A stretch of DNA of 64,000 nucleotides from Lachnospiraceae bacterium UBA1201 (GTDB lineage Bacteria > Bacillota > Clostridia > Lachnospirales > Lachnospiraceae): NCBI GenBank assembly GCA_002309675.1, contig DBXX01000016.1, forward strand, positions 5,374 to 69,373. Reading direction: 5' to 3'. This document shows positions 24,512 to 52,435 of this stretch, one piece after another. The notes under the pieces were generated by a model. That model ran no database searches, was not told where the DNA came from, and worked only from the letters and a program-made list of their open reading frames with translations. Within the stretch, counting starts at the first letter, position 1, and each line of letters starts with the position of its first letter. A program made the position numbers and the translations under genes.

Positions 24512-24703
24512 AAGCAGTCATAAAGAATTTTAGAAACGCAAATGCCCCGTTAAACTAGGGGAAAGTTAACGGAGCACTTGCATGTGTAAATAAGGAAGGG
24601 ATGTATACAAAAAAAGTCAGTAAACGATTTCAGGTTGAAGATCCGGTATTGACCGCATGTTACAGGCATTTTTTCGGGCCTGTATCGGAAGAAGAAAATG
24701 GGA
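24512..24703 (-). ncRNA. Candidate non-coding RNA segment between the two terminators (C-rich motifs, no credible ORF)
   Basis: Minus strand contains the hairpins ACAGGC-CCGAAAAAAT-GCCTGT and CCGTTAA-CTTTCCCCTAG-TTTAACGG (UCCCC in the loop), plus the single-stranded CATCCCTTCCTTAT. The longest ATG ORF I found on this strand is 39 codons with no SD. Confidence 0.35.
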
Positions 24704-24736
24704 TAAAAAAAACTCCCCGGCTAAATTCCGTGGAGA
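24704..24736 (-). terminator. Intrinsic terminator, likely the riboswitch expression platform
   Basis: Minus strand reads CTCCACGG-AATTTAG-CCGGGGAG (one mismatch) followed by TTTTTTTT. It begins about 15 nt after the aptamer. Confidence 0.7.
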
Positions 24737-24751
24737 CAAAAACATACAAAA

Positions 24752-24838
24752 ATAAATGATAGCAGCTGGCTGTCCACTTCACATGGACCCTATAGCTTTG
24801 CGTCCTTATCTTACGATAAGTTTGCCCCACATATCTTC
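24752..24838 (-). ncRNA. c-di-GMP-I (GEMM-I)-like riboswitch aptamer
   Basis: Minus strand reads GUGGGGCAAAC-UUAUC-GUAA-GAUAA-GGACGCAAAGCUAUAGGGUCCA-UGUGAAG-UGGACAGCCAGCUGCUAUC. The GGCAAAC element, the GNRA-capped first hairpin, the ACGCAAAGC junction and the second hairpin closing into ..GCCAGC.. follow the pattern of the Vc2-type class I aptamer. Confidence 0.7.
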
Positions 24839-51370: not shown

Positions 51371-52435
51371 TCACGCTCCTCTTCGTTTCTTTCCGGATAT
51401 CCGATAATATTCATCTTTATCGCTGTACATATAGGTCTCAGCCTTCGTGGTCAATGTATTGATCTCGACCATCTCCGCCGGACTGTTGGAAAAACCGACT
51501 GCAACCTGATATCCCGCTTCCCGCACCTGCTTTTTCAGCTGGCGAACCTTTTCTTCGATCTTTGCATCGCTCCAATCCACCGTGTAGGCCAGGAATTCAT
51601 CACCGCCGATACGATAGGTATCCTTCTTTCCGAAGTTTTCCTGAACGAAATGCGCGATGGTCTGCAACATGATATCTCCGGCCCTATGGCCTTCCGTATC
51701 ATTCAGATCATGCAAACCATTGACATCGATGTAAACACATCCCAGGCTCTCCCTGCACCGGCGTGTGTACTCAGCGAGATGCCACTCGTACGAGTTACGG
51801 TTATTCAGACCGGTCAGCTGGTCCTTCTCGCTCATGTATTGCAGCCGCTGTTCCAGAATAAAACCATTGACCTTAACACGAACGATGAAAACGATGCTGA
51901 CGATCGCCAGCAGTCCGAACATGACAGCGTTCGAAACATCCGCCATCAGAACCTTCCCGGACTTTGTATTAACCGCAGCAACCAAATAAACGGTCACATA
52001 GAAAACCAAGGCAGAAATAAGCCGGATGGGCTTATCGATGAACAAAAGCGGCAGGAACAGCATCAACACTACAAACGTTACTGTCTGCTCACCCGGACGG
52101 CACAGCGTACCCATCAGGATACCATAGATCATGAACAGGGAAATCGCTGCATAGATCGTAAAATATGTGAATTTCAGATGAGTCCGGCATATGCCGGCGA
52201 GTACAAATATGATCAGGGAACCGAATACGCCGAAAATGAAAACGACCCAGGCCTCCGACATCGCACGGATAACAAAAACATACAGGAGCGTCATGATCGA
52301 TGTCAAAACGAATGCAACCAAAGAATAGATCGTCAATGTGACGACATTCGCGTACTCGATCTTTTCTTTTACGGAGCGATAAACTTCTTTATCAACATCC
52401 GCATAAAAGAGTGCGTGTTTGATCCTCTCCAGCAT
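51371..52435 (-). CDS. Membrane-anchored diguanylate cyclase (GGDEF domain)
   Basis: There are about six N-terminal TMs. The GGDEF domain follows, with SEKDQLTGLNNRNSY and the active site RIGGDEFLAY. Confidence 0.9.
   Translation of the reverse strand: MLERIKHALFYADVDKEVYRSVKEKIEYANVVTLTIYSLVAFVLTSIMTLLYVFVIRAMSEAWVVFIFGVFGSLIIFVLAGICRTHLKFTYFTIYAAISLFMIYGILMGTLCRPGEQTVTFVVLMLFLPLLFIDKPIRLISALVFYVTVYLVAAVNTKSGKVLMADVSNAVMFGLLAIVSIVFIVRVKVNGFILEQRLQYMSEKDQLTGLNNRNSYEWHLAEYTRRCRESLGCVYIDVNGLHDLNDTEGHRAGDIMLQTIAHFVQENFGKKDTYRIGGDEFLAYTVDWSDAKIEEKVRQLKKQVREAGYQVAVGFSNSPAEMVEINTLTTKAETYMYSDKDEYYRISGKKRRGA

Follow-up and report, generated by a model that had tools for sequence, protein, structure and literature searches.

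A conserved C-rich RNA predicted to be gated by a cyclic di-GMP-I riboswitch downstream of radA in a Lachnospiraceae bacterium

The 64-kb window analyzed here, a stretch of contig DBXX01000016.1 of Lachnospiraceae bacterium UBA1201, carries on its minus strand, 3' of radA (26350-24917), a unit in which a cyclic di-GMP (c-di-GMP) riboswitch of class I appears to stand before a conserved non-coding RNA with C-rich motifs. A first-pass annotation, made from the letters of the DNA, had flagged the segment between two terminators as a candidate riboswitch-gated small RNA (sRNA). The features it described are located on the minus strand where it had placed them, as confirmed by sequence and fold. 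Read in the direction of transcription and in window coordinates, the unit comprises the following.

24886-24858, minus strand: sigma-70 promoter with TTGACA, a 17-nt spacer, TATAAT and a TG-extended -10 element, matching the consensus at 12 of 12 positions.
24841-24826, minus strand: leader purine box GAAGAAGAUAUGUGGG, overlapping the 5' strand of aptamer helix P1, GAUAUGUGG.
24836-24758, minus strand: c-di-GMP-I (GEMM-I) aptamer (RF01051, 57.9 bits against a gathering score of 35, E=1e-8).
24740-24705, minus strand: expression platform, in which UUUGUCUCCACGG (24740-24728) is both antiterminator partner and terminator 5' arm.
24735-24705, minus strand: terminator 1, CUCCACGG-AAUUUAG-CCGGGGAG plus U8 (stem-loop 24735-24713, U8 24712-24705).
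24703-24513, minus strand: the flagged segment between terminator 1 and terminator 2.
24701-24687, minus strand: pyrimidine box CCCAUUUUCUUCUUC, directly after terminator 1 and complementary to the 5' leader.
24684-24661, minus strand: hairpin A (UACAGGC...GCCUGUA), 7 bp.
24640-24530, minus strand: sRNA core, consisting of an ACUGACU box (24621-24615), the block UUUUGUAUACAUCCCUUCCUUAUUUACACA (24612-24583), hairpin B and a U-rich tail.
24603-24590, minus strand: candidate seed 1, C/U-rich CAUCCCUUCCUUAU, unpaired in the minimum-free-energy (MFE), centroid and consensus structures and invariant in all lineages.
24583-24536, minus strand: hairpin B, 18-20 bp with a 7-nt loop.
24565-24555, minus strand: candidate seed 2, apical CUUUCCCCUAG, containing the loop UUCCCCU; invariant.
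24512-24475, minus strand: terminator 2, strong, with a 12-bp stem (24512-24483) and U8 extending to 24475.

Relatives of the locus were reached through radA and MarR-like protein queries in GTDB representatives, a metagenome scan, an exact-protein look-up and a protein search. Among the at least 80 GTDB loci listed by radA synteny, the best of which were distant Lachnospiraceae at 64-65% amino acid identity, neither aptamer nor core was found 3' of radA by blastn, nhmmer, regular expressions or a covariance model. The exact-protein look-up with the MarR-like gene returned only contigs whose intergenic region is 100% identical to that of the window, and these are therefore uninformative on divergence. 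The radA protein search showed that the lineage is sparsely sampled, with four clusters clearly outscoring the remainder (about 65% identical). The entire unit is present in L096-L101 (radA 97% identical at the protein level) at about 87% nucleotide identity. In L093 (radA 71%) and L094/L095 (radA 69%), only the counterpart of window positions 24640-24530 is found 3' of radA. The contig L092, also among the four closest clusters, carries no sRNA core; there and in the radA homologues at 65-66% (L102-L104) the next gene starts within 18-115 nt, so that no sRNA lies between. A conserved 26-mer had no match in viral contigs and the core had none in plasmids.

Transcription is predicted to start at about 24851, from a promoter that was also found in L096-L101 and in L085, a contig from the metagenome scan that is 99% identical to the window genome-wide and diverges over the 3' half of the riboswitch and the linker. 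Aligned to its family model, the aptamer contains the conserved core GGCAAAC, GACGCAAAGC and ACAGCC in full, and its GNRA tetraloop is GUAA. The L085 aptamer matches RF01051 at 58.4 bits; for the window, the variant model c-di-GMP-I-GGC (RF03167) remained under threshold (55 vs 59). Across four aptamer variants, two pairs in the distal stem of the 3' helix ("P3") have changed on both sides and others via G-U, and P1 in the consensus fold pairs GAUA-GUGG with CUGC-UAUC. The aptamer is identical to that of the sister species at 76 of 81 positions, compared with 51% at neutral sites. By its match to the family model, the RNA upstream of the segment is a c-di-GMP-I riboswitch, with ligand binding itself being predicted. 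Judging from the encoded proteins, c-di-GMP signaling is present in the organism: the membrane GGDEF cyclase reported by the first-pass annotation at 51371-52435 exists (PF00990 at 1.8e-19, intact RIGGDEF, several hydrophobic N-terminal segments indicating a multi-pass protein), with the correction that the gene (52435-51371) lies on the minus and not on the plus strand.

A side observation concerns L085, which matches the window at about 99% identity along 6.5 kb, apart from a patch of 70-90% identity (window ~25056-24645, L085:2330-2745). This patch spans the radA 3' end, the aptamer 3' helix, terminator 1 and hairpin A, and carries an allele resembling the L096 type; in the alignment it looks like a recombination mosaic limited to the riboswitch platform and sparing the sRNA core.

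The core itself is under strong purifying selection. When the window is compared with the L096 species, radA shares 84% of its nucleotides, and its four-fold degenerate sites, at only 51% identity, are close to saturation; in the core, by contrast, 108 of 111 positions are identical and 24640-24545 is unchanged throughout. The core is 82-87% identical between the window and L093/L094, and a covariance model built from the three lineages matches it at 108-136 bits. The invariant parts are ACUGACU, the 30-nt block, the outer stem GCAAGU/AYUUGC of hairpin B and its apical sequence. Of the C-rich motifs described earlier, the one placed in a hairpin loop corresponds to UUCCCCU of hairpin B and the single-stranded one to seed 1, and both descriptions were borne out. 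The idea that the whole 190-nt segment forms the functional unit was not: conservation is confined to 24640-24530, and the unit is, on this alignment, a core of about 100-110 nt.

The segment folds with a z-score of -6.5, and none of 200 shuffles folded equally well. Both of the stable hairpins and the strong terminator attributed to it are present, with hairpin B having been described by its inner part only rather than at its full 18-20 bp. The inner stem of hairpin B has been rewritten between lineages and is still paired: it reads GCUCCGUUAAC / GUUUAACGGGGC in the window, GUCCGCCUC / GAGAGCGGGC in L093 and ACCCAUUCUC / GAGAAUGGGU in L094, around an unchanged loop. In a model-based alignment with 16 consensus pairs, 98.8% of the cells were paired and four pairs had changed on both sides, compared with only 29-43% paired in slid controls. 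In two of the three lineages, G-U pairs give the sense strand a clear stability advantage over the antisense strand. In this alignment, the pattern of change is the classic one for a structured RNA. The covariation that the first-pass annotation had proposed to look for in both hairpins thus exists for hairpin B, across three lineages, while hairpin A is lineage-specific. Hairpin B has a U-rich tail in all lineages, and in L094 the hairpin received a terminator score; it may thus end the transcript by itself and is probably the sRNA's own terminator. Searches of Rfam 15 at E<=10 with the window, L093 and L094 sequences gave no family match, and RF01820 was not listed; chance matches (sX13 at E=0.56, rliE, microRNAs) were inconsistent and none was common to the homologues.

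The segment could in principle encode a small protein instead, and a competing open reading frame (ORF) on the plus strand had been pointed out. It exists (24601-24759, 52 amino acids, with a Shine-Dalgarno (SD)-like AAGGAAGGG), it is open at 47-52 residues throughout the window's lineage (52 in the window, 47 in L085, 50 in L096, 51 in L098), and its SD-like sequence, ATG and first four codons (MYTK) are invariant. This invariance, however, follows from the sequence being the complement of the C-rich motif. The frame shrinks to 7 residues in L093 and 13 in L094, frameshifts alter its C-terminal half between members of the window's lineage (FFGPVSEEENG vs FSGLYRKKKG), SD and ATG are separated by 1-4 nt, and the plus strand showed no promoter for it. 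A second candidate, a 39-amino-acid ORF on the minus strand (24669-24550), lacks an SD, is broken in L093 by a stop or indel and is without a start codon in L094; the sense frames share only the peptide dictated by invariant nucleotides, with no common start or stop and no SD. Gene callers annotated nothing at the locus in 15 public contigs. Based on these comparisons the segment is non-coding, with no reading frame conserved on either strand, and we regard a small protein as the real feature as highly improbable.

Around the core, the 5' third of the segment and its 3' end belong to the riboswitch-bearing lineage. The stem of hairpin A is invariant inside a stretch that is only 75% identical (47/63) to the sister species, and the hairpin is absent from L093 and L094, which have other 5' hairpins; together with the rest of the 5' third it is, from its distribution, a linker specific to this lineage. 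The leader purine box has two complementary partners, the 5' arm of terminator 1, with which it forms an antiterminator, and the pyrimidine box. The duplex with the pyrimidine box has a predicted energy of -18.3 kcal/mol, compared with -11.0 +/- 2.8 kcal/mol for shuffled leaders, of which 5 of 300 were as good. Leader box and pyrimidine box (the latter in its part UUCUUCUUCC) are invariant in the four variants, in a surrounding linker of only 75% identity. Such a helix could serve as a closing helix or an RNase III processing site, and would form in read-through transcripts only. Terminator 2 is identical to the sister species at 29 of 38 positions, with one compensatory G-C to A-U change in L096, and is absent from L093 and L094; it is, by this distribution, an addition of the window's lineage and the end of the transcription unit there.

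Terminator 2 is also a site of foreign DNA. In L097 (5830-8425), as well as in L098 and L101, about 2.6 kb have been inserted with the left junction within the terminator-2 loop, replacing the terminator 3' arm and the following 250 nt present in L096. The insert encodes a DUF4417 protein and small ORFs, and in L098 an IS110 transposase too. Possibly, the sRNA gene has a hotspot for insertions at its 3' end.

No c-di-GMP-I aptamer was found at the sRNA core in L093 and L094. There, the core has its own TG-extended promoter (11/12 and 12/12 consensus positions, respectively), 40-60 nt upstream, and a lineage-specific 5' hairpin. The core occurring alone and promoter-driven in relatives implies that the RNA is a gene in its own right, which in the window's lineage would be controlled by a riboswitch. 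The riboswitch may have been gained in the window's lineage, or lost in L093 and L094. In the window's lineage, the stretch from terminator 1 to the core showed nothing resembling a sense-strand promoter, so that the core should depend on read-through of that terminator.

Upstream of the riboswitch-less promoters we noted a conserved element, TTCGACAAAATGTAAAAA(A)TTTTT (L094:5446-5472, L093:5450-5480), which in L094 is a perfect palindrome, ATGTAAAAA-T-TTTTTACAT, centered near -63. It may be a transcription-factor site giving the input that the riboswitch gives in the window's lineage. A separate observation in L093 (5590-5685) is that cis pairing is possible between the C-rich stretch and AUAGGGAAG together with an AAGGAGA ribosome-binding site, whose gene starts 20 nt past hairpin B, one sense frame being open from the core into the gene. 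This is probably a coincidence, with a hint of a local target.

The position of the unit raises the question of whether the riboswitch is a cis-regulator of the downstream MarR-GNAT-ABC operon, with the 190-nt segment as a mere long leader. The next gene, encoding a MarR-like protein (24358-23771), is indeed on the same strand, but it lies 3' of the 12-bp terminator with its U8 and has its own perfect promoter with two TTAGTTCGGAACCGAAGTA operators. In L096 and L099, moreover, the unit precedes the GNAT gene without MarR, and in L097 and L098 it precedes the inserted DNA. The MarR homologues L086, L087 and L088 from the metagenome scan (55-61% identical) have no riboswitch or sRNA (0/3), and the operators are kept in L086 and L087; the unit is thus not tied to MarR. 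The genes 3' of the core are unrelated between lineages (MarR, GNAT, a Zn-ribbon/leucine-rich-repeat protein and a Sel1 protein), a finding that also ruled out a cis-leader role in L093 and L094. Unrelated downstream genes and MarR homologues without the unit together exclude cis-regulation of the downstream gene, and we consider control of this operon very improbable. As for the MarR-like gene itself, the operators overlap the 12/12 promoter (24432-24359, minus strand) and are conserved in L086 and L087, and the N terminus of the repressor carries an unusual extension, Gly/Pro-rich and about 90 amino acids long, with PFGMGGxPG-type repeats.

With hairpin B covarying, the C-rich motifs invariant, the plus-strand ORF unconserved and the core independent in relatives, the candidate riboswitch-gated sRNA of the first-pass annotation is supported: as far as comparative sequence can tell, the locus very probably encodes a real, conserved and structured non-coding RNA under c-di-GMP riboswitch control.

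We then considered how the riboswitch would gate this RNA. The 5' strand of P1, extended to AUGUGGGGCAAAC, can alternatively pair with UUUGYCUCCRCGG, that is, with the 5' arm of terminator 1, which predicts an OFF switch. For every variant, the MFE fold of the nascent transcript contains this antiterminator, which is more stable than the terminator in the window, L085 and L096 (-13.4/-16.1/-18.2 vs -9.0/-8.7/-12.5 kcal/mol). The terminator stem is preserved in all variants, although linker and terminator 1 are identical to the sister species at only 41 of 55 positions, and it is precisely the mismatched position inside the terminator stem (A or G opposite G) that pairs with U in the antiterminator. 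According to this model, AUGUGGGGCAAAC would pair with the antiterminator partner when ligand is absent, sequestering the terminator 5' arm and yielding a read-through RNA of about 325-375 nt. Bound c-di-GMP would lock P1 (its 5' strand paired with CUGCUAUC) and thereby free the terminator, leaving a riboswitch fragment of about 145 nt only. The sRNA would be made at low c-di-GMP and serve as a signal of that state.

Riboswitches of the c-di-GMP-I class exist in both polarities, and the polarity here is a matter of prediction, so the same architecture might act as an ON switch in which c-di-GMP favors read-through and the sRNA signals high c-di-GMP. The terminator 5' arm does not overlap the P1 3' strand, however, and the sole strong competitor of terminator 1 is the P1 5' strand with the junction, which ligand binding would sequester. 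On these thermodynamic grounds we think it likely that the riboswitch is an OFF switch, and an ON switch unlikely.

Taken together, we propose one minus-strand unit in which a strong constitutive promoter would drive a c-di-GMP-I riboswitch whose terminator gates entry into a non-coding RNA of about 100 nt. This RNA would expose its two invariant C/U-rich elements, one single-stranded and one in an apical loop, and would most likely pair in trans with purine-rich ribosome-binding regions of the GGAAGGG or GGGGA type, altering translation or stability. Such a pair of exposed C/U-rich elements, with one placed in the loop of a hairpin or terminator, is the signature of Firmicute sRNAs that pair with SD sequences (PMC2790875, PMC4409812, PMC8583004). 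By this analogy we infer that the C-rich motifs serve as seeds against ribosome-binding sites, and we give a trans-acting anti-SD sRNA an even chance. Self-masking of the seeds by the leader was considered and rejected, since the pairing was no better than with shuffled leaders.

Several points weigh against this proposal. A target scan of 59 start regions in the window showed, on average, no enrichment over shuffled seeds; its best candidate, a lipoprotein-like gene (21205-20144) with the ribosome-binding site GAUAAGGAAGGAAUAUG, reached -19.4 kcal/mol at a z-score of about -2.5, which is not significant. At 30 nt, the invariant single-stranded block exceeds the usual length of a seed, and it might just as well be bound by a protein. 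The ON/OFF assignment is based on thermodynamic prediction alone; terminator 1, at -9.0 kcal/mol, is weak to modest, so that gating could be leaky, and there may be a weak internal promoter. Carriers of the core make up only three independent lineages, which leaves the covariation statistics thin, and the narrow known distribution limits the interest of the finding.

The length of the block and the lack of enriched targets in the window would fit an RNA that binds or titrates a protein, or a transcript that acts as a whole as a c-di-GMP sponge. Precedents exist for both. The layout of a 5' aptamer and terminator, a conserved non-coding 3' module and no regulated ORF is that of EutX (Enterococcus faecalis) and Rli55 (Listeria monocytogenes), in which a riboswitch and terminator likewise lie 5' of a non-coding transcript, and synthesis of the 3' module requires read-through, which takes place when ligand is absent (PMC8237595), as is predicted here. 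Both work through protein sequestration (PMC8237595). They differ in responding to adenosylcobalamin (B12) rather than c-di-GMP, in being unrelated in sequence and in carrying dual hairpins that bind an ANTAR protein, whereas the RNA described here is a C-rich hairpin RNA that likely base-pairs. The core, a single long hairpin with a 7-nt loop, is unlike an ANTAR substrate, and its sequence shows no ANTAR-type dual hairpin or GGA-type CsrA motifs, no search aimed at ANTAR sites having been made. Unpaired C-rich loop motifs are instead a hallmark of base-pairing Firmicute sRNAs (PMC2790875, PMC8583004). The merRNA of Bdellovibrio bacteriovorus also contains a c-di-GMP-I riboswitch inside a non-coding RNA with no downstream ORF and was proposed as a c-di-GMP store (PMC3627812); no functional downstream module was described for it, whereas the downstream module here is conserved and aptamer-free in relatives. 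A sponge leaves this conservation of the 3' core unexplained, and a merRNA-type sponge with the aptamer as its only conserved part was rejected because L093 and L094 retain the core without an aptamer. We rate action through a protein or as a sponge as rather improbable. The full model, namely a riboswitch-gated conserved RNA that pairs in trans through its C-rich elements under OFF logic, appears somewhat more probable than not.

The same riboswitch class is known to control non-coding RNA in Clostridia. In C. difficile, c-di-GMP-I riboswitches lie 5' of the antitoxin RNAs RCd11/RCd12, and an orphan c-di-GMP-I riboswitch is located between CD2517 and CD2517.1 (PMC11477304). A type I antitoxin is thus conceivable for the present RNA, which is perfectly antisense to an SD and ATG on the opposite strand. 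RCd11/RCd12, however, are cis-antisense prophage antitoxins with a stronger internal promoter, whereas the unit described here has no toxin ORF and no detected internal promoter, and is chromosomal, syntenic with radA and conserved across species. The locus lies next to radA and not in a prophage, there was no match in viral contigs or plasmids, and the antisense ORF is hydrophilic in addition to its poor conservation, making an antitoxin an extremely doubtful explanation.

The trans-acting reading finds its functional parallel in RsaE/RoxS and other C-rich sRNAs of Bacillales, which are likewise short, have unpaired C-rich motifs partly in loops and end in a terminator, and which were proposed or shown to pair with SD regions (PMC2790875, PMC4409812). 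The present RNA has no RF01820 match, its motifs are CAUCCCUUCCUUAU and UUUCCCCUAG, its taxon is Lachnospiraceae-like, and a riboswitch takes the place of control by ResDE, SrrAB or Rex. By sequence it is not a member of the RsaE/RoxS family, and the resemblance is functional only. SreA/SreB, the S-adenosylmethionine riboswitches of Listeria, share with it a riboswitch-derived transcript with a trans-regulatory role (a candidate role here); in SreA the terminated riboswitch itself regulates, whereas here the candidate regulator is the read-through extension. In the literature searched, the coverage of which was incomplete, we came across no conserved C-rich sRNA of the trans-acting type that is gated by a c-di-GMP riboswitch.

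Two further features of the window were recorded. Between clpC and radA, the minus strand encodes a 138-amino-acid protein without a Pfam match (26822-26406); all close relatives (L092-L104) have a gene of 136-138 amino acids at this position, likewise lacking a Pfam annotation, and the protein may be a lineage marker. A T-box leader lies at 9173-8948 on the minus strand (RF00230, 102.8 bits).

c-di-GMP acts through protein effectors and through riboswitches located 5' of protein-coding genes. The location of a riboswitch directly 5' of a conserved C-rich RNA suggests that this bacterium probably turns the level of a second messenger into translation control of other genes. If true, this would be the first case of c-di-GMP controlling a post-transcriptional regulon via a base-pairing C-rich sRNA, and a riboswitch that releases such an RNA would add fan-out, with one sensing event reaching many mRNAs post-transcriptionally. 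The sRNA matches no Rfam family and its host clade consists of poorly sampled rumen or gut bacteria, from which, to our knowledge, almost no sRNAs are known. The relatives provide a natural experiment in which the same sRNA occurs either with the riboswitch or with a promoter and upstream palindrome only, its inputs having been swapped. We tentatively suggest, at somewhat less than even confidence, that a second-messenger riboswitch was joined to a pre-existing trans-acting sRNA gene in one uncultured Lachnospiraceae-like lineage, while its sisters use a stand-alone promoter that is possibly controlled by a transcription factor. If so, the locus would be a natural example of the modular rewiring of an sRNA's input.

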